A stretch of DNA of 64,000 nt from an uncultured delta proteobacterium (lineage in GTDB: Bacteria; Myxococcota_A; Polyangia; Polyangiales; Polyangiaceae). This document shows, one piece after another, positions 33,714 through 52,817 of the stretch. A model generated the notes under the pieces. The model was given only the letters and a program-made list of their open reading frames with translations. It ran no database searches and was not told the origin of the DNA. Position numbers and translations under genes: made by a program. The stretch spans positions 800,001-864,000 of the forward strand of contig CAWJCS010000006.1 of NCBI GenBank assembly GCA_963841435.1. The letters are read 5' to 3'. Position 1 is the stretch's first letter. Each line of letters opens with the position of its first letter.

Positions 33714-33905
33714 TCGTACGTAGTGACGACGGATCGCGCCGGGCTCGACGCAGCGGCTGCTCGGTCGGGTACGCATGTTTGCCGCGCGCCGTGAATGACG
33801 CGACGCGCGGCCACGACGGGGCGTTTTGTCGCGCCTTGCTGAGCTGCGGCGCGCGTGCCGTTGGGCACGCACGGCGAGGCAGTGGGTCTCGCGTGGCGTG
33901 AGAGC

Positions 33906-36443: not shown

Positions 36444-36726
36444 TCTTGAAAGCGATTCCAAAACGCGGGGGATGAGACTCTCTAATTCTAGCGAAGCTCA
36501 GGTGCCAGGATCCTTCGGAACTGACGCAGGTTGCTCAACGGAACAGCCTTTCGCCAGCTCAAACCCTCTCCGCCGCCTCCGGGCATGGGGGCGAAGCGGC
36601 CTCATGCGCCTCGCGAGCGAATCCGGATGTTGACGCACTGAAATATCGATTGCGCGGACCGCACGAGTGCCGCCCGAAAGCGCCACCGGTGGTAGCCTTC
36701 GAGTCGTGCAGTTGGTGTCGGGCGGA

Positions 36727-37605
36727 GTGGCGCGCTCACTCGTCCGTCGGATGGGCCTCGTGCTCCTGATGGGCGGCGCCGCTCTGCCTGGGTGCGCCGG
36801 CCAGAGCGACGGTGGTAAGGCTTCGGGATCGGTAGGCGGCGCCGCGGCCGGCGGTGGAGCTGGCGCGGTCGGAGGGACCGGTGGGTCCGCGGGCAGCGTT
36901 GGGGGAGGCATGGGTGGTTCCGCGGTCGTGTCGGGCGCAGGCGGCAGCATCGGGGGGATGGGTGTCGCGGGCGCTCCGGGCAGCGGCGGCGGGGTGAGCG
37001 GCGGTCGCTCGGGGGGTGGCGGAGTCGCGGGAGGAAGCGGCGTCGTGGGAGGAAGCGGCGTCGTGGGAGGAAGCGGCGTCGCGGGTGACATGGGTGGGGC
37101 CGGGGAAGAAGCGGGCGCTGGAGGTGGCAGCGGAACTGCCGGCGGGATGGGAGGCGCTCCGAGCGTCGGGCCCTGCGACATCTACGTGGACGCCGGCGTT
37201 CCCTGTGTCGGCGCGTACAGCATGGTGAGGGTGCTCGCGAGCGCGTACGGTGGGCCGCTCTATCAGGTGCGAAAGGGTGGGCCTGACCCAAACCTCGGTG
37301 AGGGCGGCGAGACACAGGACATTGGCGTCACCGCGAGCGGCTTCGGTGATGCGGCCGCACAAGATGCATTCTGCGGCAGCGAAAGGTGCACCGTATCGGT
37401 CTTGTATGATCAGTCGGGAAAAGGGAACGACCTGAAAGCCGCAGGTCAAAGCTGTTACCAATCCGCGCCACCGCCGACGGCCTACGAAGCGGCCGCCGAC
37501 GCCCACCCGCTGAACGTTCGCGGTCAGGACGTCTACGCGCTCTTCACGGGGCACAACGAGGGGTATCGCAACAACCAGGCCGCGGACACCTGCGGCAGGT
37601 CATGA
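36727..37605 (+). pseudogene. 3'-truncated GH54 alpha-L-arabinofuranosidase B lipoprotein
   Basis: Lipobox LPGC, Gly linker, GPCDIY..CVGAYSMVR..YGGPLYQVR..AAAQDAFC..LYDQSGKGNDL..GYRNN, then a stop. The catalytic-region motifs (CCFDYGN, DLExG) are absent. Confidence 0.8.
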
Positions 37606-37751
37606 TGAGCGTGGAGCACCGGCTGAGCCTGCCTTTTGCGTTGCTTTGTTTCCGCCGCCTTGAATAGCCCCCGTTCGGGCACCTCCCGAGGAACCAGTTC
37701 ACCCGCATGACCCCGTGCGGTCTTCGGACCGCACAAAGGACGGACCCCTCG

Positions 37752-39500
37752 ATGTATTTCGCTCGCTCGGCCCCGACGCTTTTCGTTTCCCTTTTGGCGG
37801 TCACCGCGGCGTTCGGCTGCTCGTCCGGCGAGGATCCTGCGCCCGCGTCGTCCGGCGGCGCCACGGGCGGCGTCGGCGGCGGCGTCGGCGGGAGCGGTGG
37901 CGCCGCCGCCGCCGCGGCAGGCACGGCGGGGGGCAGCGGCGCTGCGCCCGTGGGTGGCACCGCGGGCGCGCTCACCACGGGCGGCGCCTCCGGAGCCAGC
38001 GGGGCCGGGGCAGTCGCCGGCAGTGCGGGGGCCGTCGGCGGCACGGCGGGTTTCGGCGCCGGGGGCGGCGCCGGTGATTCGAGCGTTGGCGGGTTCGCCG
38101 GCAGCTCTGGCAGCCCGACGGGCGGCAGCGCGGGCGCTTCGGACGGTGGGGCCGCGGGCACGACCACCGGCGGAAGCGGCGGAAGCGCCGGCGCGACACC
38201 GGGCAACTGCAACTTCACCGTGGAGGCACAAACCGCCGACAAGGCCGGCACCAACGGCATCCCCACGGTCGGTATCGTAAACTGGTCGGTCGATCTGCCG
38301 AGCCTCACGAAGGCCAGCATCGTGTTCGGCGCCCAGGGCGGCGCGACGACGATGACCGCGCCCGTCAACGTCACGACGGGTCCGAGCTTCCGAACGCTAC
38401 TGCTCGGCATGAAGGCCTCGAAGACCTACGACTTCCACGTCGAGGTCGAGGGGGGCGGCATGAGTTGCTCGAGCATGCCGTCGTCGATCACCACGGGCGC
38501 GTTGCCCTCCGCGCTGCCGCGCGTCACCCGGACGACGGGCTCCGCGGCAGCGTCGCAGGCCAAGGGCTTTCTCACGGTCAGCACGGGCTTGGCCGGCGGC
38601 GGTGGGATGGGAGGGGGCGGCGCGTCGTACGCGTTCATCCTGGATGCCGACGGGGACATCGTGTGGTGGACGACGGCCCCCGCGCAATGCAGCCGCGCCA
38701 AGATGAGCGGCGACGGTCAGCACATGTGGATGGTGTCGCTGAACGTCGGCAACGGCCAGAAAGACGGCGGCGAGGTCGATCGCGTTTCGATGGACGGCCT
38801 CACGCGAAACACCAAGATCCCCGGCTTCTCGAACTGCCACCACGACATCACCGTGCTCCCGACGGGTGGCAAGGCGGCGTGCCTATCTTGGATCCAGCAA
38901 AGCGGCGATCAACCGAGCGACCTCATCGAGGGTGATGGCGACGGCAACATCACCACCGTCGCACGCATCGATTCCACCGTCTACGCGAGCAGCCGCTTCC
39001 ATGCCAACGCGCTTCACTACCATCCGACCGACGACAGCTACACCATCAGCGACCGCAACCCGAACCTGTTCGTCAAGATCAGCCACGCCGGCAAGGTGCT
39101 CTGGCAGCTCGGCGGGAGCTGCTCGGGGGCGCCTGCACCTTCGTGTGTCGGGGGCAGCTGGCAAGTGAACCACGGGCACGACATGCCCGACGACGGCAGC
39201 GGGGCGTTCCTGTTCTTCAACAACGGCTCGAGCGGCTCGTCCACCGTCTTCAAGTACCAGTTGAACGAGACCGGAGCGTTCACGGCCACCGAGGTTTGGA
39301 CGTACAAGCCCGGCACCACGAGCAACGTGCTCGGCGACGTGCAGCAGCTGCCCAACGGCAACGTGCTCGTGGCGTTCTCGACCGCGAGCGTGGTCCACGA
39401 AATCGACTCGAGTCGAACGCTCGTGCAGCAGCTGAGCGGCGGCATCGGCGGCTACGTCGAGTGGCGCGAGACGTTGTACGGCCCGCCCGCGCGTTACTGA
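37752..39500 (+). CDS. Arylsulfate sulfotransferase (ASST)-like beta-propeller lipoprotein
   Basis: Lipobox AFGC, Gly linker, LLGMKASKTYDF, ILDADGDIVWW, CHHD, FHANAL, WQLGG, NHGH, FNNG, GDVQQLPNGNVLV. Confidence 0.75.
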   Translation: MYFARSAPTLFVSLLAVTAAFGCSSGEDPAPASSGGATGGVGGGVGGSGGAAAAAAGTAGGSGAAPVGGTAGALTTGGASGASGAGAVAGSAGAVGGTAGFGAGGGAGDSSVGGFAGSSGSPTGGSAGASDGGAAGTTTGGSGGSAGATPGNCNFTVEAQTADKAGTNGIPTVGIVNWSVDLPSLTKASIVFGAQGGATTMTAPVNVTTGPSFRTLLLGMKASKTYDFHVEVEGGGMSCSSMPSSITTGALPSALPRVTRTTGSAAASQAKGFLTVSTGLAGGGGMGGGGASYAFILDADGDIVWWTTAPAQCSRAKMSGDGQHMWMVSLNVGNGQKDGGEVDRVSMDGLTRNTKIPGFSNCHHDITVLPTGGKAACLSWIQQSGDQPSDLIEGDGDGNITTVARIDSTVYASSRFHANALHYHPTDDSYTISDRNPNLFVKISHAGKVLWQLGGSCSGAPAPSCVGGSWQVNHGHDMPDDGSGAFLFFNNGSSGSSTVFKYQLNETGAFTATEVWTYKPGTTSNVLGDVQQLPNGNVLVAFSTASVVHEIDSSRTLVQQLSGGIGGYVEWRETLYGPPARY

Positions 39501-39543
39501 CGCTCCTCGCGATCGCCGGCTGGGCGGTCTCTTCGGGACGGCC

Positions 39544-40605
39544 CTACCAGGCTCGCCGGTACTGCTTCGGCGCCGGGAGCTCGGCGCCGAGCGCGCGGGC
39601 CGCGCGGCGAGCGAAGTACGGATCGCGCAGCATCTCTCGCGCGAGCAGCACGAGATCGGCTTGGCCCGATCGGATGACGTGATCGGCTTGCTCGGGCGAC
39701 ACGATGAGCCCGACCGCTCCCGTCGCGAGCCCCGATCGCCGCCGGATCTCCGCAGCAAGGCCGGTCTGGTAGCCGGGCCCGACCGGGAACTTCACTCCGG
39801 GCACGAGCCCCCCGCTCGACACGTTGACGAGCGACACGCCGTCGTGTCTTATCGCTTCGGCGAGCGCAGAGGATTGCTCGAGATCCCAGCCGCCCTCGTG
39901 CCAATCGGTCGCCGAGACACGCACGAAGAGCGGGAGCTGCTCGGGCCAGACGCTCCGCACTGCGGCGATCACACGCCGTAAGAGGCGGATCCTATTTTCG
40001 AACGAGCCCCCGTGATCGTCAGCCCGTCGGTTCGAAAGGGGCGACAGGAACTCGTGCAAGAGGTAGCCGTGGGCGGCATGGATTTCGACCACCTCGAACC
40101 CCGCTTCGAGCGCGCGCCGCGCCGCGCCGGTGAACGCATGCACGATCTGGTCGAGCTCGTCGCGCGCCAGCGCTTGGGGAACCTGGCTCCGTTCGTCGAA
40201 CGGCACGGCGCTCGGCGCCACGATCGGCGTCCAGCCGCCCCCGTCCGGCGCGAGCGACGCGCCGCCGTCCCATGGCACGGCCGTGCTCGCCTTGCGCCCG
40301 GCATGCGCCAGCTGAATGCCGGCGATCGCGCCCTGCTCCTTGACGAACCGCGCAATCGGCTCCCACGCGGCGACGTGCGAATCGAGCCAGAGCCCCGTGC
40401 ACCCGGGGCTGATCCGACCGCGCGCTTCGACCGCCGTGGCCTCCGCCATCACGAGCGCTGCCCCGCCTACCGCCCGGCTGCCGAGGTGCACGAGGTGCCA
40501 GGTGCTCGGGTGCCCCTCCGTGGCAGAGTACTGGCACATTGACGAGACTGCGATGCGGTTCTTTAGGGTGAGGCCCGCGAGCTCGAGGGGAGCGAAGAGG
40601 TGCAT
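39544..40605 (-). CDS. NADH:flavin oxidoreductase (Old Yellow Enzyme, YqjM/XenA type)
   Basis: NRIAVSSMCQYSA, IQLAHAGRKAS, EIHAAHGYLLHEFLSPLSNRR, AREMLRDPY, PKQYRRAW. Confidence 0.93.
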   Translation of the reverse strand: MHLFAPLELAGLTLKNRIAVSSMCQYSATEGHPSTWHLVHLGSRAVGGAALVMAEATAVEARGRISPGCTGLWLDSHVAAWEPIARFVKEQGAIAGIQLAHAGRKASTAVPWDGGASLAPDGGGWTPIVAPSAVPFDERSQVPQALARDELDQIVHAFTGAARRALEAGFEVVEIHAAHGYLLHEFLSPLSNRRADDHGGSFENRIRLLRRVIAAVRSVWPEQLPLFVRVSATDWHEGGWDLEQSSALAEAIRHDGVSLVNVSSGGLVPGVKFPVGPGYQTGLAAEIRRRSGLATGAVGLIVSPEQADHVIRSGQADLVLLAREMLRDPYFARRAARALGAELPAPKQYRRAW

Positions 40606-40744
40606 GCCCCTGCACTACCACTTCGGAGGCGACTGGCGCGCCCCAGGGAGGGCTGTGCAATCCGATCGCTTCCGCCCTGTCGAGTCATCGGGCCCACAAC
40701 ACCCCGTGAGCCACGCGACCGCTGCCGCGTCGGTGAGTAGGCTC

Positions 40745-41365
40745 ATGGCGACTCATCCTAGCGATCCCACGACGGCCGGCAATGGCGGCTTTGGTGTTCG
40801 CAGGTGTTGCGGGCTGGTGCTCGGAGGCTGGCTAGCGTTGCTGGTCGAGGGTTGTGGCGTTCGTTTCGGTGGGACGAGACCGCCCGAACCGCTGCCTGTC
40901 GATCCTGCGATGATGTGTGACGGCCGTCCCGTGAAAGCTCGGCCCCCACCACCGCCCGGCCGCCCGCAAGTACCCGCGAAGGGCTCCGCGGCGCGGGCGA
41001 TCCTCGAGGCGTATTGCGAGCGCTCCGATGAGCTCCGAGACTGCTACGGCGACACGCTCTGGCGCGATCGCAATGCGGAAGGGATGGTCACCGCGCGGCT
41101 GGTTCTCGATCGGGGCGGACGGCCGAGCAACGTCTGCTTCCTGGATACCGCGATCAACGATGCCGAAGCACTTCGCTGCATTCGCGACGTCTTGGCGTCC
41201 GTCGTCACCCCCCCGCTCGCCAAGCCGACTCGGGTGGTCTTGCCAGTGCGGCTGGTGAGGACTACCGGCGGCGGGGTCGAAGAAAACCACGGCCCATGCG
41301 AGGAGCTCCGCAGAGAACGGGAATTCTCCGATGGCCAGACCCGCGCATCGAATACCTGGCCGTAG
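40745..41365 (+). CDS. Putative lipoprotein with AgmX/PglI/TonB-C-like domain
   Basis: LVEGC. ELRDCYGDTLWRDRNAEGMVTARLVLDRGGRPSNV..ALRCI..VVLPVRL. The 3' end runs into the integrase remnant. Confidence 0.55.
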   Translation: MATHPSDPTTAGNGGFGVRRCCGLVLGGWLALLVEGCGVRFGGTRPPEPLPVDPAMMCDGRPVKARPPPPPGRPQVPAKGSAARAILEAYCERSDELRDCYGDTLWRDRNAEGMVTARLVLDRGGRPSNVCFLDTAINDAEALRCIRDVLASVVTPPLAKPTRVVLPVRLVRTTGGGVEENHGPCEELRREREFSDGQTRASNTWP

Positions 41366-41500
41366 AGGCCGTCACGGTCACGGATGTACCTCGCGACCGT
41401 ATCCTTGCTCACGTCGTGCCCGAGCTTGGCGAGTGCTGCAGCGATGCGGCGCCGACTCCACAGCGGATCCTCGGCGGCGATGCGCTCGATCAAGGCGAGC
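41339..41500 (-). mobile_element. Internally deleted integrase-core/transposase remnant
   Basis: LIERIAAEDPLWSRRRIAAALAKLGHDVSKDTVARYI (HTH) joined directly to RDRDGLYGQVFDARV (second catalytic Asp region of rve-type integrases). Confidence 0.7.
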
Positions 41501-41559
41501 TTGCTGATCGGCTCGCTGTAGGACAACAGGCTGCCTATCGGCCTCTCTGACCTCAGGGA

Positions 41560-42475
41560 TGTCGTGTTTGCGGCGGGCAGGGAGAGGCCCGCAGACATCG
41601 ACGACCGGCGCTGGGCAGTCATCGTAGTGGCAGTCACAGTACCGCAACGTCGGACACGAGAAGACGCCGGCAAACTCCCACGCGGTCGCCGGATTGCAGG
41701 TCGGACAGTCGAAGACGACGCTAACCCGGTGATGCTTGAGGTCAAGTAGCCCGTGATGGTGTGTCCGAACTCGGTATAACCACTAATAGGGCAGGGTGGT
41801 GTCGAGCAGGGGTCGTGGCCGCCGAGCGTGATGTGCAGCGTACCCACCGTGCCCTCGTAAGGGCTCCCCCAGACATTGGTAATGCCCGGTATGGTACTGT
41901 TCGGGGTCGGGACCACCGGAGCGGGCGGCGCGCTGAACACGGTCAACGTGGGATCAGAGGGCACCGTGGGCCCGATACCCAGCGTCGGAGTCACGTCTAG
42001 CGGAACGCTCGACACCGTTCGCGTTGCCGGGGCGATGGCATGGATCGAGTGCGGGCCGGCGGTGAGGGTCGCGGGCAGCTCGATCATCGCGTTCCAGGAA
42101 TCTCTGAATGGAACGGCCACCTCCTGCCCATCCACACAAATCCGGAAAATCGCCGTCGAACGCGCCGTCGAGGAGCACCGCGCCGCCAGCGCCTTGTGCA
42201 GGCGTCAGCACGGCGTTCAGAATCTCGTTGCTCACCGTGCCCGCGGGCGCGGACGCGAGCTCGTCACATGTAGTAACGCCCAAGCCGCACACGCCGGCAA
42301 CACAATCGCCGGAAGCGCACTCCGAGCCTGCCACGCAGGGCTGCCCGTCCCTCGAGAGAACACAATTCCCGGCGCCGTCGCACGCCTCGGTCGAGCTGCA
42401 GGTCCTTCCGCGGGGAGCATTGGCGAACGCGCAGTCCTCGACCGTCGCACAGCGGCCCGAGGCACCGCATTACAA
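41560..42475 (-). pseudogene. 5'-truncated, frameshifted Cys-rich secreted protein remnant
   Basis: CSSTEACDGAGNC..GQPCVAGSECASGDCVAGVC followed by an Ig-like stretch across a frameshift near 42135. No intact start or signal peptide. Confidence 0.5.
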
Positions 42476-42548
42476 ATGACTATTGGCTGGTCGCTGCAGG
42501 GTGCCAAGGATTGAGGCGCCGTACATCTACACATCGCGGAGGTTGGCC

Positions 42549-42956
42549 ATGGATGGGCTCATCGGGTGGATTGTCATCGCCAGCGTCGTAAGCTCGATTG
42601 TTGGCGTCCTCTTCTGGGTAGCAATTGCCGTGTTCGCGGCCAAGGCAGCCGCCGAGGTGGCGCGCTCGGGCGGTGGGGGACCGTGGCCCGCCGCCGGCGT
42701 CGGCGGCCTCGACCCTCAATTCTTGCGCGCCATGCAGCAGCTTTCCGCGATCATCGCTCAGGCGCAGGCGGGACAGCGCGGCTCGAACAACGACGGTGCC
42801 ATGCAAGGCCAGTTCGCTTCCCAGATGCTGGCTGCCCAGCGCCAGTTTCACGCTCTCGATGATCTGAGCCGGCAAAAGCACGAAACGTTCGTGAGCGGCA
42901 TGCTGAGTGACGCCTCGGCGGCCGGTCTCGACGTGAGCGGTTGGAACATCAAGTAG
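42549..42956 (+). CDS. Hypothetical protein: one N-terminal TM helix and a Gln/Ala-rich helical tail
   Basis: GGAGG RBS. MDGLIGWIVIASVVSSIVGVLFWVAIAVFAAK. Ends 30 bp before the next gene. Confidence 0.7.
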   Translation: MDGLIGWIVIASVVSSIVGVLFWVAIAVFAAKAAAEVARSGGGGPWPAAGVGGLDPQFLRAMQQLSAIIAQAQAGQRGSNNDGAMQGQFASQMLAAQRQFHALDDLSRQKHETFVSGMLSDASAAGLDVSGWNIK

Positions 42957-42986
42957 CGTGCCGCTCTGGCCTGCGGAGGACGATCC

Positions 42987-45249
42987 ATGCTGACGGATGA
43001 GCTCATGCAGCGCCGGGATCGCGCGGCACAGCGTCACGATCGCGCACTCGATCGCTTTCCCGATCGCGCCGGGGCGACCTTCGAAAGGGAGCTCGACGCC
43101 GTCATCGAAGAGCTCTGTGCCGTGTGCGCGCAAATCGGCGGCGATGAGCGAGGCGCCGAGGTCGTGCGCTCCTTCACCTGGCTCGCGGACGCCTGTTTCG
43201 ATCGCGGTCTCGGACGAGACCCGGTCTGGCTGGAGAAGGGCCGGGGCTACTACCTCCGCGCGGAGGCGTCGCTTGGCAGCGGAGACCTCTTGCTCAGGGC
43301 TAAGCTCGACTACAACCTCGGCAACACCCTTCGCGGTCTGAGCGAGGGGAGCAAGCTCCCCCTGCTGAGGGAAGCAGAAGGGCGGTACCGCCTCGCCCTC
43401 GATCTCTTCCGCAAGCATGCGCCGAATCTGGTTGCGGCCGGGGAGACAGCCGTCGCCTCGATCACCCAGCAGCGCGCGCTGGCCGAGCGCTTGGCCGGCA
43501 TGGCGAGCGGACTCGCGGAGTTGCAGACCATTGAAGCGCAAGCTAGCTCTGGCGACGAGGAGGGTGCGGCCGCAGCGCTCAAAGCCTTCGCCGCCAGCGC
43601 GCCCAGTGCGGAGTCGGCTGTGCAGGGCCTCGGCCAGGAGCTCGATATGATGGCGGCGACGCTCGGTCTGCCCGTGGGGTTCGTCCAGGCGGCCAAAGAG
43701 CAGTTCTACGAGGAGGCCGCCAAGGTTGGGCTCGGTGCCTCGGCGCCCATGCGCGCCATTTTCGGTCAGCTCGAAAGCCGCTATCGCGCCGACGTCAGCT
43801 CCGGAAAGGTGAGCGCCGCTCGGCAAGAGGTCATCGAGAGCACGATCGCCCAGCTCCGTGACCTCCTGGTCGAGCAACCTCACGAAGATCCCACGGCGAT
43901 GGCCTCGTGGTTGGCTCGCATGCGCGCGCTGATGGGCCAGTTCGTCGAGACGATCGAGAACCCCAGCTCCGGATCTCAGGCAAACCAGACGCTGGAGGGC
44001 CGTTACGCTCGATTTCGCGCCGTCGTGTCGGAGGAGGAGCGGCAGCCTCAGCGCTACCACGGAGAACGGGACACGACGGGGCAGATCTTCGTCGAGCTCG
44101 CCAAGCTCAGCGAAACCATCGCGAGATTCGAACTCGGACGCCCAGCGGGCGCTCGCCGTCGAGCGAGACCGGCTAAGACCCCTGGCGGGGCGCTGGCGCG
44201 AATACACGCTGCGGCACCACCTAATCCTTGCCCAGCCCGACCGCTGGTCGCGTGACTCGGTCCAGGTGGAAAGCAATACGATTGCCTACTTCGGGGATGC
44301 TCGGACGGCGCCGCACATCGTTAGCTACTGCCGGGAGCAGGGGTTCCGGCTCTTCGACGCCGGTAACCTCGATCCCTCCGCGGCGGTCTGGTCCGCCGTG
44401 CGTTCGGCGGCAGTCGTCGTGGCAAAGCTCCAGGGCCCGCGGGGCCCCGCGTGGGCAGGGACTTGCTACGCGCTCGGACTGGCGGGCTGCACCGGTGTTC
44501 CGGTCGTGCTCCTCACCGAGCCGGGTCAGGCCCCGCCGTTCGACCTGGACGCTCCCCCCATTGTGCTCGAGGAGGGCGGCAACCTGGCGGCAGAGCTCGC
44601 CGAGCGGATTGACGCCGCGCTCTACGCGCGTCGGGCGCTCGATGCCAGCGAGAGCACCGTCGCTGCGACGGTCTCGGCGGCGCGTTCCATGTTCGAGGGA
44701 GGCCTCGGCGGAACGCTGTTCATCAATTTGAAGGGTGAAAGCGCCGAGGACCCGGTGCACGTGCGGGCGCTCCTCGTCCAGGCGTTGGGCGTCACCGGGC
44801 GCGGTGCGCCGCTGCTGCTCACGCCCGCCGTTCCGGTGCCATACCCCGCACCAAGCGAGCGCTCGTGCTTTCACGTGACGCCCTTCGATCGCCCCGGCAA
44901 GGCCGCTCGCTTCGAGGCCGTGCGTGCGCTCGCCCGTCGCGCGTGCGCTGACGCGGGCATCACCTACCTCCACGGCGACGAGGCGGCCGATGGCCGCATC
45001 TTGCGCGCCATCTGGAACGACATCGGCCGCTCCGAGCACGTGCTCGTCGACCTTACCGATCAGAACCCCAACGTCGCCTACGAGCTTGGCATCGCGCACG
45101 CGCTCGGCCGCAAAGTCCTCGCCATCGGCCAAGCCGGCAGCGAAAAGGCACTCTTTCCGTCCATCGCCAAGGAACGCATCACCCCTTATGCGCCAGCAGC
45201 ACCCGACGAGGCCCTCGCGCCGGTGCTGAAGCGGTTCCTGGGCGGCTAA
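42987..45249 (+). CDS. TPR-like/helical protein with two tandem nucleoside 2-deoxyribosyltransferase (NDT/DRHyd)-like domains (apparent +1 frameshift near 44128)
   Basis: GGAGGA RBS. AKLDYNLGNTL..LREAEGRYRLALDLF. The frame of ORF 44266 is open back to 44101. C-terminal CFHVTPF..IWNDIGRSEHVLVDLTDQNPNVAYELGIAHALGRKV, preceded by a degenerate copy AVRSAAVVVAKL..TCYALGLA..PVVLL..PPFDL. Confidence 0.7.
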
Positions 45250-45541
45250 GCCGCTTGCCGAACGCAGTCGCGCTAAGGGGTGTCGCAACCGCCGGCGAGC
45301 GTCGCCATGCTGTCGAGCCACTCGCGCTTGCGAGAAAGAGGTCGTCCCGCGCCCGCCGCCTGATCCGAGCGCTACCGCGCCGCCGCCGGCTCCGGGTGAT
45401 CGGGGACGGCGCGGCTGACCGCGGCGGGTCTGAGCTCCGCGAGTCCCCGCTAGGTTCCCGGGCCCCAATCGCCTTCCGGACCTCCAGCCTCTCGCCCGCG
45501 CTTTCGACGACCCGCACGGCGCGAGCTAGCTTCCCCGAGCG

Positions 45542-46387
45542 ATGCAACCAGGTGAGGAGAGCAAGACCGCGATCATGGTGTGCGCCGCCCGGGCGCTCGC
45601 CCACGGCTTGGTCGACGAGCCGCGCTTTTCGGATCCGACCGCGCTCGTGCTCTTGCCGGACGACGAGCGACGCCGGGTCGAGCACCTGCGTACGGCGGAG
45701 GTGCCGCGCGCCTTGGGGGCACGGGTCAAGCGCGCGTTCACCGAGGGACGGTCGAAGACGATGGTGGCACGTACCGTCGCCATCGACGACGTGGTGCGTG
45801 AGGCGGCGTCGCCAGAGCTCGTGATCCTCGGCGCCGGGCTCGACGGGCGCGCGTTTCGCATGCCCGAGCTCGCGCGCACCATCGTGTTCGAGGTCGATCA
45901 TCCCGATTCGCAGCGGAAGAAGCGCGAGCGCGCGGCCGGGCTCGTGCCGACGGCGGCTGAGCTCCGTTTCGTTCCGGTCGATTTCCGAACGGACGATCTG
46001 GACGCCGCGCTCACGGTCTCGGGCCACGATCCGAGGCTCCCCACGACCTGGATCTGGGAGGGCGTGGTCATGTACCTGACGCTCGCCGAGATCGAGGCGA
46101 CGCTCGCGGTGATCGCGCGCCGCTCGGCGGCCGGGAGCTGCCTCGTCATCGTCTACCACGCTCCAGCGTGGGTGCTCAGGATCGTGGGTGGCGTCACCCG
46201 GCGGCTCGGCGAGCCTCTGCGCTCCTCGTTCCGCCCGGAGGGGATGCGCGTGCTGCTCGCCAGGCACGGCTTTCGCGCCACGAGCGATGCCAGCATCGCT
46301 ACCATCGGCGCCGAGCTCTCGCCCTCGGTCGCGCGCGCCACGCGACCGATCACGCACCTCCGGCTGGTCACGTCCGTGCGCGACTGA
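45542..46387 (+). CDS. Class I SAM-dependent methyltransferase (leucine carboxyl methyltransferase-like)
   Basis: SKTAIMVCAARA, RTVAIDD, LVILGAGLDGRAFRM, FEVDHP, WIWEGVVMYL. Confidence 0.9.
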   Translation: MQPGEESKTAIMVCAARALAHGLVDEPRFSDPTALVLLPDDERRRVEHLRTAEVPRALGARVKRAFTEGRSKTMVARTVAIDDVVREAASPELVILGAGLDGRAFRMPELARTIVFEVDHPDSQRKKRERAAGLVPTAAELRFVPVDFRTDDLDAALTVSGHDPRLPTTWIWEGVVMYLTLAEIEATLAVIARRSAAGSCLVIVYHAPAWVLRIVGGVTRRLGEPLRSSFRPEGMRVLLARHGFRATSDASIATIGAELSPSVARATRPITHLRLVTSVRD

Positions 46388-46430
46388 AGCGGTGACACCG
46401 CTTGCAACCCGTCGTTCAGGACTGGGGCTT

Positions 46431-47591
46431 TCAGTCGTCCGACGGATCCGCCATGTCGGGATCGTCGGCGCGAGCGCGCACGTGCTCGGCGAACTTCGCG
46501 CGCTGCTCGGGAGTCAGGATGGCGAGCACGGTCTGCACGAACGCGACGCGCTCCTTCGCCATGGCCTTGGCCATGTCCGGCGCTCGGGTTCCGACACCCG
46601 CCTTCTTGGCGTCGAACTTGTCGCCTTCGAAGGCGTCACCGAGGCCCTTCATGTGCTTCATGGCCGCTTGCATGGTGCTTTTCATGGACGCCTGGCGGGT
46701 TTTCATCTGCGCCTCGAGCTTGGTGCGAAGCTTGCCCTTTTGCTCGCTCGTCAGGCCAAGGTCCTTGGCCAGCATCTCGACCACACGCCCGGCGTGCATG
46801 CCCGGACCCTGTGGTCCACCGGGTCCCATGCCCGGGCCAGGACCGCCCTTTTCGTGCATGCCGGGTCCGCCCTTTTCGTGCATGCCGGGACCGCCCTTTT
46901 CGTGCATGCCGGGTCCAGGACCGCCCTTTTCGTGCATGCCGGGTCCAGGACCGTCCTTTTCGTGCATGCCGGGTCCCCCGGATCCCATGCCGCCAGGTCC
47001 CATGCCGTGCTCGCCCATGCCCCTGCCCCGTTCGCGCAGGGCGGCGACGAGCTTCTTGCGCTGGTCCGCGTCGAGCGTCTTGTGCAGGCGATTCATCGCG
47101 TCCTGCACGGTCGGCGTCGTGGCGGCGATCGCGGTGCCGATCGCGCGAACGTCAGCGTCCGTCTTCGCGCGATCGATCTTGCCGGCAGCGACGCCGTCGG
47201 CAAGGTCACTGGTGAGCTTCTGACGCGGCTCCTTGCCAGCGTCGGCAACCTTCTCGAGGTCGCCTTCGATACCGTTGACGGCCGACTGCTGGTCCGCCCT
47301 GAGCTCGAGCGAGTCGAGCGTCATGATGAACATGTCGGCCATCGTGTGCGAATGCGTGCGGTGCCTGTGGGTCGCGGCAGGTGTGGCGACGGGCGCGGGC
47401 GCTGGTGCGGGCGCGCTTTCCGGCGCTTCCGCCGCGGCGACGGGTGCCGGAGCTTCAGAAGGTGGCGGGGGCGGAGCCTCGGCAGCTGACGACGGGCCCG
47501 TAGATGCTTGTCCGCTCATCGTACACGCCGGCAGCCCGCAGGCGGCGAGTAGGACGAGGACAGCCTGACAGGATCCGATTGGTTTTCTCAT
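46431..47591 (-). CDS. Spy/CpxP (LTXXQ) family periplasmic lipoprotein with Met/His repeat insert
   Basis: Signal and lipobox LPAC. LELRADQQ, LDADQRKKL, LGLTSEQK, ILTPEQRAKF. Confidence 0.82.
   Translation of the reverse strand: MRKPIGSCQAVLVLLAACGLPACTMSGQASTGPSSAAEAPPPPPSEAPAPVAAAEAPESAPAPAPAPVATPAATHRHRTHSHTMADMFIMTLDSLELRADQQSAVNGIEGDLEKVADAGKEPRQKLTSDLADGVAAGKIDRAKTDADVRAIGTAIAATTPTVQDAMNRLHKTLDADQRKKLVAALRERGRGMGEHGMGPGGMGSGGPGMHEKDGPGPGMHEKGGPGPGMHEKGGPGMHEKGGPGMHEKGGPGPGMGPGGPQGPGMHAGRVVEMLAKDLGLTSEQKGKLRTKLEAQMKTRQASMKSTMQAAMKHMKGLGDAFEGDKFDAKKAGVGTRAPDMAKAMAKERVAFVQTVLAILTPEQRAKFAEHVRARADDPDMADPSDD
46843..46973 (-). repeat. Five-copy 24/30-bp coding repeat (PGMHEK[GD]G)
   Basis: ccgcccttttcgtgcatgccggg occurs 5 times on the + strand (one with a single mismatch). 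Confidence 0.9.
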
Positions 47592-47793
47592 GGCGCTCTC
47601 CGAGCCCGGAGCCTGCTCCGATCCGGGCCCCGCCGGCAAGCGCGACTGCCCATCGGAGCGCGTGGGGCGGGCGACACGGGCGCGAAACCCGCACCTCGTC
47701 ACGAGGGCGAGCCAGCTGGTCGAGCATCACCACGCCTCGTCACGGCGCGCAAAGTAGCCGTCCGCCGCCTGCAAACAGCGCGTCCCCGCGCAG

Positions 47794-48894
47794 TCACGGA
47801 CTCTGGCGTCCGTCGGCGACGGCGTCGAAGTCGAGGACCGCCTTCAGCAGGCGCCCTCGGCGTTGCACGCCGCCCGTGTTCACCGCCATGATCAGACTGA
47901 AGTAGCCGTCGAGCAAGCGATGAACGCGAGCGTCGACGGGGCCGTACTTGGCCTCGTATCGCTCGCGAAATCGGGTTTGCCAATCGCGGGCTCGAAACAG
48001 CGATAGCCCCGGTTCGTCCCAGCGCACGCGGTAGCGATAGTCGCCGCCCTCGTCGAATCCGCCGACCTCCACCCACTCCGCGCGCAGCGCCAGGAGCTCA
48101 CCCTTCGCATACGATTCGTATTTGACGAGATCGAACAGCGGGGGACCCTCGACGACCCCGGCAACCGACACCGGGTCGATCAACACGAGCCGCTGGCCGT
48201 CCTCCGAAGCGCCCCTCAGCGGCCGCCAGAGCAGATTCTCGAGGAATAGGTCCCCGTGCAGGCGAACCTGGGGCGCCGCGTCCAGAGCCGCGAGCAGCGT
48301 GGCATCAGCGCGAAAGCGCGCGAACGATGCGCGCGCGCCGCGCCGCAACCCGCCATCGAAGCGTAGCTCTGGCGCGCCGATCACCGGTGCGAGCACGGGA
48401 TCGGTCTCGAGAGAGCCCAGCGCTTGCTCCACCGCCATCACGACATGCACCGACAGCGGCTCGCCAACCGCCGCGACGGGGACGTGCACCTGCTCGAAGA
48501 CGGACTGTGCGAGCACGTCCTCTAGCTCGTCGATCTCCCGCTGCGAAAGCGTGCCCTGGCGCGCCAGTTGCCCGCCGTCGACGTGCTCCGCGAAGAACGG
48601 CACCTCGTAGCCGACGCGGGGCGGCTCCGCGCTCGCGTCGTCCCAGCTCGCCAAGAGGGGCGGAAACGCCGCGCGCGCCGCTTCGGGCAGCGTCTTCAGG
48701 TACGCGATCTCCCGCCGCAACGCGCCAACGCCCCACGGGCCCGGCGGAGCGCTTCCCTTCGAGCTCTTTCGCACCCGGAGCGAGCCGTCGGCAAGCTCGA
48801 CGACCTCCGTACGCTCCCAGTAGCCGTCACGGAGCACGCGTACGACGCGCCGGCTCGCCCCGCTCTCGGCGCCGAGACTCGCCGCTTCCGTCAT
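47794..48894 (-). CDS. APH/choline-kinase-like phosphotransferase
   Basis: VRKSSK, LRREIAYL, catalytic HGDLFLENLL, LIDP, LFDLVK. Confidence 0.72.
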   Translation of the reverse strand: MTEAASLGAESGASRRVVRVLRDGYWERTEVVELADGSLRVRKSSKGSAPPGPWGVGALRREIAYLKTLPEAARAAFPPLLASWDDASAEPPRVGYEVPFFAEHVDGGQLARQGTLSQREIDELEDVLAQSVFEQVHVPVAAVGEPLSVHVVMAVEQALGSLETDPVLAPVIGAPELRFDGGLRRGARASFARFRADATLLAALDAAPQVRLHGDLFLENLLWRPLRGASEDGQRLVLIDPVSVAGVVEGPPLFDLVKYESYAKGELLALRAEWVEVGGFDEGGDYRYRVRWDEPGLSLFRARDWQTRFRERYEAKYGPVDARVHRLLDGYFSLIMAVNTGGVQRRGRLLKAVLDFDAVADGRQSP

Positions 48895-49010
48895 GGGCTT
48901 GCCGCGCTCGACGCTGCAGGGCGCACGCCGCGTGACCGTGCGCGAAGTCGCGCGCGCGCCGACACCCGGCGTTCACCCCGAGGCCGTCTGCTAGAGTCGA
49001 GCCCGGCGCC

Positions 49011-49754
49011 ATGGCCTCTGTGCCTGACATCATCCGCAACGCGGAGGGCGAACGCCTCGACTTCACGTTCCACGAAGGAAGCGACTCGAGCAGTCCGGTC
49101 GTCGTGATCGGTCACGGTGTGACGGGCCACAAAGATCGCCCCTTCCTCGTCGCGCTCGCCGAGGGGCTGTCGCGCGCGGGGATCGCAGCGCTGCGGCTGT
49201 CGTTTTCCGGCAACGCTGGCTCGGAAGGTCGCTTCGCAGAATCGACCATCTCGAAGGAAGTCCGCGACCTCGCGTCCGTGCTGGACGCGCTCGGCGGCCG
49301 CAAAATCGCCTACGCGGGGCACAGCATGGGCGGGGTGGTGGGCGTGCTCGGCGCTCGCCGAGACCCGAGGATCCGCGTCCTCGTCTCGCTCGCGGCGATC
49401 GTGCACACGCGTGCTTTCGCCGAGCGTGCTTTCGGCCACCTCGAACCTGGCACGGGGTTGATGTTCGACAAGCCCGGCTGCGTGCTCTCGCAAGCGTATC
49501 TCGACGACCTTCGAATCATCGATTCGGTCGTCGCGCATGCCGGGGAGGTTACCGTGCCCTGGCTGTTCGTGCACGGCACGCGCGACGAGCTCGTTCCCAT
49601 CAACGACACGCACGATGCCCACGCGCGAGCGCGGGCGCCCACGCGACTCGTCGTGCTGGACGAGGCCGATCACGTCTTCGAGCCCGGCCTCACGCCGCGG
49701 ATGGTCGAAGCCGTCGTCGAGTTCTGCCGCACGAACCTGCTCGCGGCGCGCTAA
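49011..49754 (+). CDS. Alpha/beta fold hydrolase
   Basis: HGVTGHKD, FSGNAGSEGRF, GHSMGG, VHGTRDELVP, ADHVF. Confidence 0.9.
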   Translation: MASVPDIIRNAEGERLDFTFHEGSDSSSPVVVIGHGVTGHKDRPFLVALAEGLSRAGIAALRLSFSGNAGSEGRFAESTISKEVRDLASVLDALGGRKIAYAGHSMGGVVGVLGARRDPRIRVLVSLAAIVHTRAFAERAFGHLEPGTGLMFDKPGCVLSQAYLDDLRIIDSVVAHAGEVTVPWLFVHGTRDELVPINDTHDAHARARAPTRLVVLDEADHVFEPGLTPRMVEAVVEFCRTNLLAAR

Positions 49755-49951
49755 CACTACTGTCAGAGATTCGCGTTTCCTTCGAGAAATTCGCAGATTG
49801 GCGAGCGGCGAACTTTTCGGACGGCGGCGCCCACGTCTTGCGTCCATTTCGTGCTCGAAGACGGCCGCCCGCTGGCCGCGCCAGTTGCTTTCGTGGCTCA
49901 TGTTCTCTCTGCCGGATCGTGATCTGTTCCTCCAAGACTCTGACAGTAGTG
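49755..49951. mobile_element. 197-bp non-autonomous element (MITE or internally deleted IS)
   Basis: Perfect 14-bp TIRs CACTACTGTCAGAG (49755-49768) and CTCTGACAGTAGTG (49938-49951), flanked by a CTAA direct repeat (49751-49754, 49952-49955). Confidence 0.85.
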
Positions 49952-50022
49952 CTAATGCACCGCTCATCGAATCCGAACGACCCATCGTGGACGACGGTTC
50001 TGCTCGTCACGTGTGCGGCGCG

Positions 50023-50580
50023 CTACGGACGCCCGAGCTGCTCGAACACCTCGCGATAGAAATCCGCGTGGCTGCCCCAGGTCTGGCCCGTGATGATGCG
50101 GCCGTCGCGTACGCACTCCTGGTTCTTCCATTCTCCGCCGCAGGCCTCGAGCTCGAAACGCACGTTCTCGTAACAGGTGAGCTTCATGCCGCGACCGAGA
50201 CCCGCCGCAAGCAGGATCTGAATGCCGTGACAGATCGACAGAATCCACTTCTCCTGTCGATGGAAGGTCTGCACGATCGAGATGAGCTTGGGATTGTGGC
50301 GCAAAAATTCGGGGGCACGACCGCCGATCAGAAGCACCGCCGCGTAATCGTCGACCTTCACGTCATCGAACGTGATGTCGCTCTCGATGAGGTAGCCGGG
50401 CTTCTCGATGTACGTGTTCCAGCCGGGATAAAAGTCGTGAATCACCGCGTTGAGCCGCTTCTTCTGCGTGGAGGCAATGACGGGGACGAAGCCCGCCTCC
50501 CGAAAGCGCTGCTGCGCATAGAGGATCTCGAAGGATTCGCCAGCGTCGTCCGTCACGATGAGGATCTTCTTCCCACTCAT
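50023..50580 (-). CDS. DJ-1/PfpI family protein
   Basis: KKILIVTDDAGESFE, EKPGY, GGRAPEFLR, nucleophile ICHGIQIL, TGQTW. Confidence 0.9.
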   Translation of the reverse strand: MSGKKILIVTDDAGESFEILYAQQRFREAGFVPVIASTQKKRLNAVIHDFYPGWNTYIEKPGYLIESDITFDDVKVDDYAAVLLIGGRAPEFLRHNPKLISIVQTFHRQEKWILSICHGIQILLAAGLGRGMKLTCYENVRFELEACGGEWKNQECVRDGRIITGQTWGSHADFYREVFEQLGRP

Positions 50581-50723
50581 GGTGAGTTTTCATACCGCAG
50601 CCCCGTGACCGCGTCGACCGCCGTCGGAAAGTAGACGCACCGCCTCGCGGACCGCGCGCCACGCTCACTCGACTTCATCGAGGCGGGAAAACTGCGCCCA
50701 GGGTCGGTGGGGGGGACGCACGG

Positions 50724-52817
50724 CTACTTTCCGTACCCGGCCGCGACCACGTTGGCCTGAACCTTGTCTTCCGTCGCGTCGGAAGGATAGCCAGTGACGA
50801 TGCATCCTTCGTAGAACGTGCCGTCGCTCAGGTTCGCGCCTCCGCTCGGTTTGCAGCAGTCTCCTCCGCTGCCGAGCACGATGGCGCCCTGTTTCTTCAT
50901 CGGGCTCCACCCACCGGGCAGGCCCCCCTTGTAGTAGGTGCTCAACGCACCCGCTGCCGCGTCGCCACCCCTGAGCGAATACTCGGTCGTTCCGTTGTTC
51001 TTCAGCACGGCGGTGACGTAGGTGCTGGTCTGGGACGGGTCGTTCTGGTTCTTTCCCGAGCTGCCCTGGGAAAAGAGCCCGTACTCGAGATCGGCGAGCA
51101 CCCATGGGCCAGAGCCCGCGCCGGTGCCCCAAGCGGTGATGGAGCTCAGATTGAGGGCGTCCATCGTTCCGGCTCCGTCCGCGTTGCGGTCGGTTTCGCT
51201 GTTGCCGTAGTCGAAGCAGCAGCCAGAGTTGTAGTGCTTGCCGCTCGTCACCATGTACATGCCCTCGGGCTCATTGCCCGTCGCGATGCCCGACGTCGAA
51301 GCGTCAACCCAGTAGCTGTTGCCTGGGTTGATGTAGAGCGAGTAAACCTTGTGACCGCCGACGTTCAGCGATTCGGTCGTCGCTTTGGCCGGGCTGCTCT
51401 GCGGCGAGCCAGGGACTTGCGTCGAGCCCTGGTACCAGAGGTCGTTGCCGTTTCCTGATTGGTCGTAGACGGCCGTGATGACGCACGTGGTTCCCGAACA
51501 GAACTCGTCCTGCGAGACGCCATCGGCGATCCCACCGGGCGCCAGCGTCAGGATGTCCTTGGTCATGCCGCCCGAGTTGCGCACCTGGTAGAGCTTGCCG
51601 TTGTAGGCTCCGAAGAGGGCCCGGGTCGTGCTGTGCGCTGCGACGCAAGGGTTGCCTGCCGCCTGGTAGATATCGCAGGGCTCTTCGCTGCCCCCGCCCG
51701 CCGCCCCCGCCATGCCGGCCATACCCGCCGCGCCGGCGCCCATGCCACCCGCGCCCATGCCGCCCGCGCCCATGCCGCCCGCGCCCATGCCGCCCGCGCC
51801 CATGCCACCCGCGCCCATGCCACCCGCGCCCATGCCACCCGCGCCCATGCCGCCCGCGCCCATGCCACCAGCACCACCAGCGCCGCTGACCTCAACTTTC
51901 GCGAGCACGATCGTGCCGGACGTCGTCGGCTTCGTGCTTTGCGGGGTCCAGGTCATCGTGTTGCCCGAAACGCAGTACGAGTGCTTCGTGTCGCCCGAGT
52001 CGCCCGTGATCGTGATCGTGTTGTTCGCGGTCGTGTAGTTTCCGCCCGTGGACGGTGCGAACGATACGACGCCGAGCCCGCCGTTCTGGTGAACGGTGCC
52101 CGAGCAGTTGCACCCGCCGCCGTCGGCGTCCGTGCAAGTGAGCGACGAGTAGCCCGCATTGACGAGGAGGTTTGCAGCCCCCTCGCAAGTCACGGGAGCC
52201 GAAGAGATGATCAGGCACGACGGCGCCAGAGTGAACTGTTCGCTGCCCGACGTGATCGTCTCGTCCAAATACGAGCCATCCTGCTTGGCGGTCCACGTTC
52301 CGGTCACTTGTAGGGACCCCGTGACCGGGGCGGACAGGCAGCCCGCACCGAACAAGGACAGATCGAGCTCGCCGCCAACGTCGAGGCACGACGACATCAC
52401 GGTCCAGGTGCCGACAACGTCCCCGCCGCACGCCGTGGCGCCGTCGCAACTCCCGACCGATCCGCTACTTCCCCCGCTCGCCGGGCTTCCGCCTGCACCG
52501 AGGCTGCCCCCATTGCCCGCCCCGGCGAAAGTGCCTGCTCCTCCTCCGACGCCGGAGCCAGCGCGTCCGCCTGCTCCGGCGCCTGCGGTTCCGCCCGTAC
52601 CCGGCGAGCCGTTGGAGTTGGTCCCGCACCCACCCGAAACACCGGCGAACACCATCGCCGTTGCGAGGGCCCCGCGCTTCAATTGAGTCGAAAGATTTCC
52701 GTCCGACGAGAACCTCCGGGCTGCAGAGGCGCGTTTGAGCCAAAACGGGTGCCAACTTTTCATTGAGTGCGACCTCTGGAAGACGCTTCCGTAGAGGTTA
52801 TTGCGCGCTGCCGCCAT
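50724..52817 (-). CDS. abfB: GH54 alpha-L-arabinofuranosidase B with an N-terminal Cys-rich domain (start uncertain; alternative ATG at 52763)
   Basis: PCDIY..CVAAHSTTRAL, YDQSGNGNDL, PEGMYMV, CCFDYGNSE, GPWVLADLEYG, GAIVLGSGGD, GTFYEG, VQANVVAAGY. N-terminal ACGGDVVGTW domain. Confidence 0.9.
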   Translation of the reverse strand: MAAARNNLYGSVFQRSHSMKSWHPFWLKRASAARRFSSDGNLSTQLKRGALATAMVFAGVSGGCGTNSNGSPGTGGTAGAGAGGRAGSGVGGGAGTFAGAGNGGSLGAGGSPASGGSSGSVGSCDGATACGGDVVGTWTVMSSCLDVGGELDLSLFGAGCLSAPVTGSLQVTGTWTAKQDGSYLDETITSGSEQFTLAPSCLIISSAPVTCEGAANLLVNAGYSSLTCTDADGGGCNCSGTVHQNGGLGVVSFAPSTGGNYTTANNTITITGDSGDTKHSYCVSGNTMTWTPQSTKPTTSGTIVLAKVEVSGAGGAGGMGAGGMGAGGMGAGGMGAGGMGAGGMGAGGMGAGGMGAGGMGAGAAGMAGMAGAAGGGSEEPCDIYQAAGNPCVAAHSTTRALFGAYNGKLYQVRNSGGMTKDILTLAPGGIADGVSQDEFCSGTTCVITAVYDQSGNGNDLWYQGSTQVPGSPQSSPAKATTESLNVGGHKVYSLYINPGNSYWVDASTSGIATGNEPEGMYMVTSGKHYNSGCCFDYGNSETDRNADGAGTMDALNLSSITAWGTGAGSGPWVLADLEYGLFSQGSSGKNQNDPSQTSTYVTAVLKNNGTTEYSLRGGDAAAGALSTYYKGGLPGGWSPMKKQGAIVLGSGGDCCKPSGGANLSDGTFYEGCIVTGYPSDATEDKVQANVVAAGYGK
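51736..51870 (-). repeat. 15-bp coding tandem repeat, 9 copies (GGMGA)
   Basis: gcgcccatgccRccc nine times on the + strand (last copy ends in cca). Confidence 0.92.

Follow-up and report, generated by a model that had tools for sequence, protein, structure and literature searches.

At positions 42549-45249 of a 64,000-nucleotide (nt) stretch of DNA (hereafter the window; positions 800,001-864,000 of contig CAWJCS010000006.1, assembly GCA_963841435.1) from an uncultured delta proteobacterium of the Polyangiaceae lies a two-gene cassette that combines a small membrane protein with a large protein carrying two consecutive domains of the nucleoside deoxyribosyltransferase (NDT) type (Table 1). 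Open reading frame 1 (ORF1) and ORF2 are on the same strand, with 30 nt between the stop of the former and the start of the latter. GGAGG stands 8-12 nt 5' of the ORF1 start and GGAGGA precedes ORF2, in agreement with the two co-oriented genes with good ribosome-binding sites reported in a preliminary description made from the letters alone. The frame of ORF3 is open back to 43933, and no ATG, GTG or TTG occurs in it between there and the GTG at 44266.

Table 1 Features of the cassette and its immediate surroundings (positions in the window; aa, amino acids; TPR, tetratricopeptide repeat; HTH, helix-turn-helix).
Feature	Position (nt)	Strand	Basis or details
ORF1	42549-42956	+	ATG 42549, TAG 42956; 135 aa
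ORF1 conserved C-terminal motif LSRQKHETFVSGMLSDASAAGLDVSGWNIK	42864-42953	+	ORF1-family alignments
ORF2	42987-44255	+	ATG start; 422 aa
Three-repeat TPR-like module and capping helix, big-gene residues 1-165	42987-43481	+	Predicted structure
All-helical middle without recognised fold, residues 166-380	43482-44126	+	Predicted structure; conserved with P0002
One-base insertion interval, shift from ORF2 frame to ORF3 frame	44127-44142	+	P0002 alignments of both frames
Conserved helix and strand ahead of NDT-like domain 1	44143-44268	+	ORF3 frame, 5' of GTG 44266
ORF3	44266-45249	+	GTG start, next frame after ORF2; 327 aa
NDT-like domain 1, motif CYALG	44269-44631	+	Ala codon 44470-44472 where most homologues have Glu
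NDT/DNPH1/TIR-like domain 2, motif VDLTDQNPNVAYELG	44851-45249	+	Glu codon 45082-45084; PF05014; structure model
Transposase-type HTH remnant, sub-threshold (E ~1e-3)	41356-41499	-	Profile match
IS91-family transposase gene fragment, ~100 nt	45302-45401	+	Genome matches

ORF2 and ORF3 are the two parts of one gene. Residues 6-380 of ORF2 align at 50% identity with residues 8-381 of P0002, an intact homologue of 753 aa and the closest intact relative, and the ORF3 frame from nt 44143 aligns at 57% identity with P0002 residues 385-748. As the two frames match consecutive parts of P0002, one extra base within the 16-nt interval given in Table 1 splits a gene of ~750 aa, which agrees with the single-base break near 44128 and the fusion proposed beforehand. 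A product begun at GTG 44266 would miss 43 conserved residues, modelled as one helix and one strand; since this GTG sits 10 nt past the ORF2 stop, some reinitiation may occur. Unless the extra base arose in assembly, this genome probably carries an inactive or decaying copy of the big gene. An assembly error, with which the organism would have an intact ~750-aa gene and the cassette would be functional here, strikes us as somewhat unlikely. It would fit a genome assembled in six contigs, possibly from long reads, and the break site is in none of the contigs from public runs (those of a soil run matching 14% of sampled words cover 43600-43783 and 44614-44646, outside the break). In L011, L016 and L038, from three further metagenome-assembled genomes, the homologue is likewise split in two frames, each time elsewhere in the gene; this could reflect frequent decay or assembly errors. 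Against an error stand the sequence at the break, where the longest homopolymer is 3 nt, and the 223 open frames of at least 1000 aa in the assembly (longest 3799 aa), by which indel errors are not frequent in it; the transposase fragments on either side of the cassette also fit a decaying insert. A programmed frameshift was rejected: the homologues are read in a single frame, and L011, L016 and L038 are each broken at a different place.

The C-terminal half of the big protein consists of two diverged copies of one enzyme-type domain. ORF3 matches PF05014 with 31.7 bits (cut-off 28.8, E 1.8e-7), and the model of the tandem region (m5b9d9b8e8214) has a predicted local distance difference test score (pLDDT) of 95 and a predicted template modelling score (pTM) of 0.94. 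A structure search with the last domain (model residues 239-370) returned as closest solved folds human DNPH1 (8rps_B; Z 14.8, root-mean-square deviation (rmsd) 2.8, 123 residues) and the cytidine monophosphate N-glycosidase MilB (4jem_B; Z 14.7), together with BcmB (Z 13.4), several NDTs (Z ~12.7-13) and the TIR domains of SfSTING (7un8_E; Z 13.1), SPARTA (12.7) and SARM1 (12.1). At the level of sequence profiles, the Protein Data Bank gave weak Rcl/DNPH1 matches only (E ~0.006), none of the Pfam TIR models PF13676, PF01582, PF08937 and PF10137 matched ORF3 at E<=1, and the PADLOC TIR effector model PDLC00733 matched it locally, over 47 residues around the Glu motif (E 2.7e-6). For domain 1, an NDT/DNPH1-type fold is indicated by its homology to domain 2 (hhalign profile comparison: probability 98.2%, E 4.7e-14, 74 columns, with YALG over YELG), by PF05014 matches above threshold on the first domain of several homologues (for example P0007, 39.8 bits) and by the order of secondary-structure elements, which is identical in both domains of the model. 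Two consecutive NDT-like domains, with an NDT/TIR-like structure, had been predicted in the preliminary description, and the searches bear this out, the structural part through the predicted model of domain 2.

Across an alignment of 82 sequences, the Glu at the catalytic position of domain 2, already singled out in that description, is invariant (82/82), which argues for catalysis; in the same domain the DLT motif and the Asn residues next to the Glu are invariant or nearly so. The equivalent position of domain 1 holds Glu in 55 sequences, Ala in 12, among them those of the window and P0002, Asp in 8 and other residues in 7. The dead first copy proposed earlier is therefore present here, but it is a trait of this branch and not of the family. 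NDT and DNPH1 enzymes are dimers. Taken together with the conserved dimer described for the retron effector RcaT (bioRxiv 10.64898/2026.10.13.758329), this makes it reasonable to view the tandem fusion as internal pairing, and the two domains most likely form an intramolecular pseudo-dimer.

The N-terminal 382 residues are modelled as all-helical (mac2dc06e66e1; pLDDT 89, pTM 0.68). No Pfam TPR family matches ORF2 at E<=1, and Foldseek returned nothing for the N-terminal model at E<=0.001, its top rows being TPR proteins at E 0.012 or higher. An exhaustive structure search with the same model (VIA-align) aligned residues 1-~165 with a type III secretion system chaperone (3wxx_A; Z 13.4, rmsd 2.0, 129 residues aligned), CHIP (7tb1_A; Z 12.8, rmsd 2.1, 127/127), Sti1 TPR2B (3upv_A; Z 12.6, rmsd 1.9, 124/125), Sgt2 (5lyn_B) and HOP TPR1 (1elw_B). 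These five targets, matched overall with Z 11.2-13.4 and rmsd 1.9-2.5 across 115-129 residues, are small three-repeat peptide-binding modules, and the match spans nearly the whole target chain. Because helical repeats often reach such Z values, the TPR fold is likely, and a peptide-clamp role of the module is a lead only. The predicted fold agrees with the TPR-like N-terminus and helical middle that had been read from the sequence.

A single hydrophobic helix (residues 4-31, nt 42558-42641) lies at the N-terminus of the ORF1 product, which matches nothing in Pfam or PADLOC. Its seven database relatives are 119-141 aa long and 40-47% identical to it. In their alignment the hydrophobic helix at the N-terminus is conserved and the Gln-rich middle varies, whereas the end, LSRQRHETFVSGMLSDASAAGLDVSxW, is near-invariant and in every full-length member lies a few residues or less from the C-terminus. 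Among the 35 strongly matching genome loci, four have an ORF1-family gene directly upstream of the big gene (the short forms L025, L038 and L043, and also L041), and L043 holds a second, displaced copy beside an IS110 transposase; a second-round ORF1 profile found no more partners in the 35 loci. A metagenome scan with the ORF1 family yielded three short contigs: L058, on which an ORF2-type gene lies 238 nt downstream of the ORF1-family gene; L057, which stops 218 nt past its ORF1-family gene; and L059, a weak match. ORF1 is thus a recurrent, not a universal, partner, found in those four genome loci, one metagenome contig and this window; the membrane-anchored partner of the preliminary description recurs in other genomes but is adjacent to the big gene in a minority of them. 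Direct docking is suggested by the clamp-type TPR fold on one side and the invariant C-terminal tail on the other. When the two halves of the big protein were modelled in complex with residues 36-135 of ORF1, without controls, the score was 0.23 against a mark of 0.32.

Profile searches (HMMER) with the C-terminal 370 residues, counted as representatives of clusters at 50% identity, recovered 3587 proteins at E<=0.001; a limit of 1e-10 left 368 of them and a limit of 1e-30 left 183, most of these ~700-780 aa long. Among the best 150 representatives, 97 are at least 650 aa long and match at the C-terminus (87 of 650-830 aa, median 715.5); these homologues are fused. A further 32 of these 150 are shorter than 470 aa and are stand-alone tandem-domain proteins or fragments, and 66 have an ORF2-type N-terminus (phmmer). 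Other architectures include fused DUF1232 (P0010 and P0014), C-terminal DUF1232 (P0040) and an inserted TIR_2 domain (P0090). P0003 carries a C-terminal Cys-rich CxxCxGxG-type module and a beta-rich domain (residues ~760-939), and the same type of module occurs as a separate gene just upstream of the homologue in another locus (L043:5438-5974); this module may be a further accessory of the family.

In curated resources the family is hardly represented. PF05014 is the only Pfam model on it, often below threshold; NCBIfam has no match; and PADLOC v2, run on the window ORFs, 10 intact homologues and 4 ORF1-family members, gave no full-length system match, its yield being local TIR-effector matches of ~50 residues and a 15.9-bit match to PDC-M23A. 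Neighbours in the Protein Atlas are sub-threshold (0.84). No description of this architecture or of the ORF1 family was found in the literature, in a search that mostly left out subscription journals and is not proof of absence. As first suspected, the architecture matches no named system in the sources consulted. Its components, namely an effector of the DrHyd/TIR-like type, TPRs and a membrane accessory, are of known kinds; what makes it a variant is that the domains are fused in tandem, that one catalytic Glu is occasionally lost and that the membrane partner bears a tail.

The locus search, which used a 10-sequence alignment, found the family in Gemmatimonadota, Acidobacteriota, Burkholderiales, Planctomycetota, Myxococcota, Nitrospirota, Bacteroidota, Ignavibacteriota and others. 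A viral origin was rejected, viral contigs giving one short local motif match to the family and no ORF1 relative. The distribution across phyla is patchy. In relatives of the present genome the cassette was not found: an ORF3 query gave weak partial matches only, in 6 of 40 (best E 3.4e-11 over ~95 residues), the DNA of the cassette has no match in 30, and the ORF1 family occurs in one of 401 genomes of the phylum, namely this one.

The surroundings of the homologues were surveyed in 20 loci (neighbours within 4 kb, 120 ORFs of at least 140 aa; four further loci were left out). Conflict-type or mobile neighbours are present in 7 of the 20, a fraction for which there is no background rate for comparison: MAP3K_TRAF_bd/TPR-S, TIR_2, SLATT_1 and SLATT_3 (L009); TIR_2, and TPR-S with trypsin and subtilase (L013); GmrSD (L024); TIR/ThsB with WD40 (L029); a ResIII-PLD helicase (L034); an Eco57I-type methylase and an integrase (L039); and PIN and IS110 (L043). 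The kinase-WD40 protein in L020 is ambiguous, and the other 12 loci have housekeeping or unannotated neighbours only. A place in defence islands is suggested for some of the loci surveyed, not for most. A Gemmatimonadota segment, L009:1024-8452, looks like a dense conflict-gene island, since the tandem NDT-like gene there has as neighbours two SLATT genes, a MAP3K_TRAF_bd/TPR-S gene and a gene whose TIR_2 product begins with a DUF1232-like region. DUF1232 genes lie directly downstream of the big gene at L031:9116-10021 and L039:8279-9100, a DUF1232-like gene lies upstream of it at L040:1750-2370 and a DUF4190 gene upstream in L029; we take DUF1232 and DUF4190 proteins to be membrane-associated. 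DUF1232, beside the tandem NDT-like gene or fused to it, was seen in branches that lack the ORF1-type partner.

In the window itself, the GC fraction is 0.64-0.68 across 41100-44400 as against ~0.70 in the flanks. The DNA on either side of the cassette is ~70% identical to relatives and too diverged for insertion borders to be placed. Upstream, 40650-42550 holds no clear gene. The gene debris reported beside the cassette is real, but it is transposase-derived, with an HTH remnant upstream and an IS91 fragment downstream, and includes no integrase remnant. Of the HTH remnant, 72 nt (41393-41464) recur once in the genome at 92% identity (C3:748021-748090); the second copy adjoins the end of an unrelated gene, and both look like relics. 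The IS91 fragment matches 23 other places in the genome at 76-92% identity, several of them clustered at ~6-10 kb spacing on contigs C4 and C6, and a full transposase copy (L070, 530 aa) has Y2_Tnp and Zn_Tnp_IS91 domains. The window has no transfer RNA gene, direct and inverted repeats around the cassette are limited to short, chance-like matches, and a promoter and terminator scan gave nothing informative. Farther out are ordinary genes, for an arylsulfotransferase, an Old Yellow Enzyme, an LCM methyltransferase, an LTXXQ protein, an APH-like kinase and a hydrolase; the arylsulfotransferase-like gene (37707-39500) has three paralogues in the genome at 72-79% DNA identity, and the LTXXQ/Spy-like periplasmic protein (46431-47702, minus strand) contains an internal run of GPGMHEKGGPG-type repeats.

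We favour the reading that the pair is a horizontally acquired, conflict-type N-glycosidase module, and put its probability at about one half. This reading is founded on the invariant Glu, the variable N-termini, which include TIR, the patchy spread across phyla, the partial association with immune genes and the transposase debris. Gene 1 would encode a small protein with a single N-terminal membrane helix, a probably cytoplasmic C-terminal part and the tail SDASAAGLDVSxW. Gene 2 would normally encode a cytoplasmic protein of ~750 aa made of a three-repeat TPR module, a helical linker and tandem NDT/DNPH1-like domains, of which, in this lineage, the second alone keeps the catalytic Glu. The big protein would be an N-glycosidase effector that cleaves nicotinamide adenine dinucleotide (NAD+) or nucleotides, would be held or controlled at the membrane by the partner tail bound in the TPR groove, and would act in a conflict or abortive-infection response. 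We infer the defence role, and with it the substrate, the binding of the two proteins and their regulation, from this combination of features. Several observations weigh against it. The closest solved folds, DNPH1 and MilB, belong to metabolic or biosynthetic enzymes and not to immune effectors, and the PADLOC models reach no further than the local match of ~50 residues. The ORF1-type partner stands beside the big gene in just 4 of 35 genome loci, and in a quick maximum-likelihood tree of 43 tandem regions (the gene context of those taken from P-numbered proteins is not known) its presence is scattered, with four changes and no clustering. Twelve of the 20 loci surveyed have housekeeping or unannotated neighbours only. 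Finally, as the gene is broken here, its function in this organism cannot be concluded.

Three further models can be envisioned for how the two proteins work. Under the first, which is unlikely in so specific a form, the pair would be a membrane-coupled immune switch: the effector would hold the invariant ORF1 tail, as a tethered ligand, in its clamp-type TPR groove, in the way that co-chaperone TPR domains hold the tails of Hsp70 and Hsp90. Envelope perturbation or phage entry would then break or alter this contact, releasing or assembling a pseudo-dimeric NDT/TIR-like N-glycosidase that would deplete NAD+ or nucleotides, and the DUF1232- and DUF4190-type membrane proteins of other family branches would serve as alternative tethers.

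Under the second model, which we consider doubtful, the big protein is a nucleotide N-glycosidase of housekeeping or specialised metabolism, cleaving damaged or modified nucleotides in the manner of DNPH1 or serving biosynthesis in the manner of MilB/BcmB, with the TPR module and membrane partner providing localisation and not immunity. The top structural matches (DNPH1, MilB/BcmB) speak for it, as do the 12 loci with plain surroundings; L020 has the ambiguous kinase-WD40 neighbour only. A metabolic role fits poorly with the weak and partial matches in the 40 relatives, the patchy spread across phyla, N-termini that vary and include TIR and DUF1232, and the 7 of 20 loci with neighbours of the TIR, SLATT or restriction type; biosynthetic genes did not appear as conserved neighbours.

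The third model, improbable on present evidence, reverses the roles: the tandem domains would be nucleotide sensors or signal generators, and the effector function would fall to the small membrane protein, which might, for instance, oligomerise in the membrane. The recurrence of membrane proteins as partners and the first domain without Glu in this lineage are compatible with it, and sensing or signal generation is among the roles open to members of the TIR-DrHyd-SLOG clade (PMC9503650). Conversely, beyond its single helix ORF1 contains no known domain for pore formation or ligand binding, most family members lack an ORF1-type partner, and catalysis is the role for which the invariant Glu of domain 2 argues.

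Among the immune effectors of bacteria and eukaryotes, NDT/DrHyd and TIR enzymes form a central class. The present family, with at least 183 clusters, is a large one for which no family-specific model has been curated, and the defence databases scanned do not contain it. If intact pairs protect against phage, the conflict-module reading would add a membrane-coupled mode of control to those of NADase-type effectors; in this genome the cassette stands isolated, as an insert that is probably decaying.

Among known proteins, domain 2 most resembles DNPH1/Rcl, MilB/BcmB and NDTs, with which it shares a Rossmannoid fold (Z 12.7-14.8, rmsd 2.2-3.0 over 113-127 residues), the above-threshold PF05014/DrHyd match of ORF3, and a Glu that opens the equivalent helix within an xELGxA motif; its identity to these structures is 12-24%. 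By contrast, DNPH1, MilB and the NDTs are small, single-domain, homodimeric metabolic enzymes, whereas here two diverged copies are fused behind a TPR and helical region, with a gene for a membrane partner. The TIR NADases (SARM1, SPARTA TIR-APAZ, TIR-STING, CBASS/Thoeris) have a related fold (Z 12.1-13.1) and share the local match of ~50 residues to PDLC00733 around the Glu motif. They differ in that ORF3 has no Pfam TIR match, its motif and top matches being NDT/DNPH1-like, and in that no SAVED, STING, Ago or ThsA partner sensor is present here. Computational surveys relate the DrHyd (NDT/Rcl) superfamily to TIR and SLOG and predict that in prokaryotic conflict systems its domains act as effectors, either as NADases or by generating signals (PMC9503650, PMC7159879); TIR and DrHyd are placed in one clade there (PMC9503650).

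The retron defence effector RcaT (Retron-Sen2, Retron-Eco1/Ec86), to judge by its label, presumably shares the NDT-like fold. It is termed deoxyribosyltransferase-like and is described as having a conserved dimer, a catalytic Glu and NAD+-dependent activity (bioRxiv 10.64898/2026.10.13.758329). The cassette departs from Retron type II-A (Ec86-like) systems in having no reverse transcriptase domain (ORFs and frames scanned across 33855-52817) and no Rfam match (42000-45700), in its tandem fusion where RcaT is a dimer, and in its control, which in retrons lies with multicopy single-stranded DNA and here would lie with the TPR module and membrane protein.

The last comparison is with proteins combining MAP3K_TRAF_bd and TPR-S (PF13281, PF20308), one of which shares the island with the homologue in L009. 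We take the MAP3K_TRAF_bd region to be a DrHyd-like nucleotide-processing domain, and the TPR-S model likewise describes TPR-type repeats. These proteins are weak language-model neighbours (0.83-0.84, below evidence level), and neither PF13281 nor PF20308 matches ORF2 or ORF3 at E<=1. The order of domains is reversed between the two architectures: here the TPR module comes first, the enzyme domain is duplicated and a membrane partner is present.

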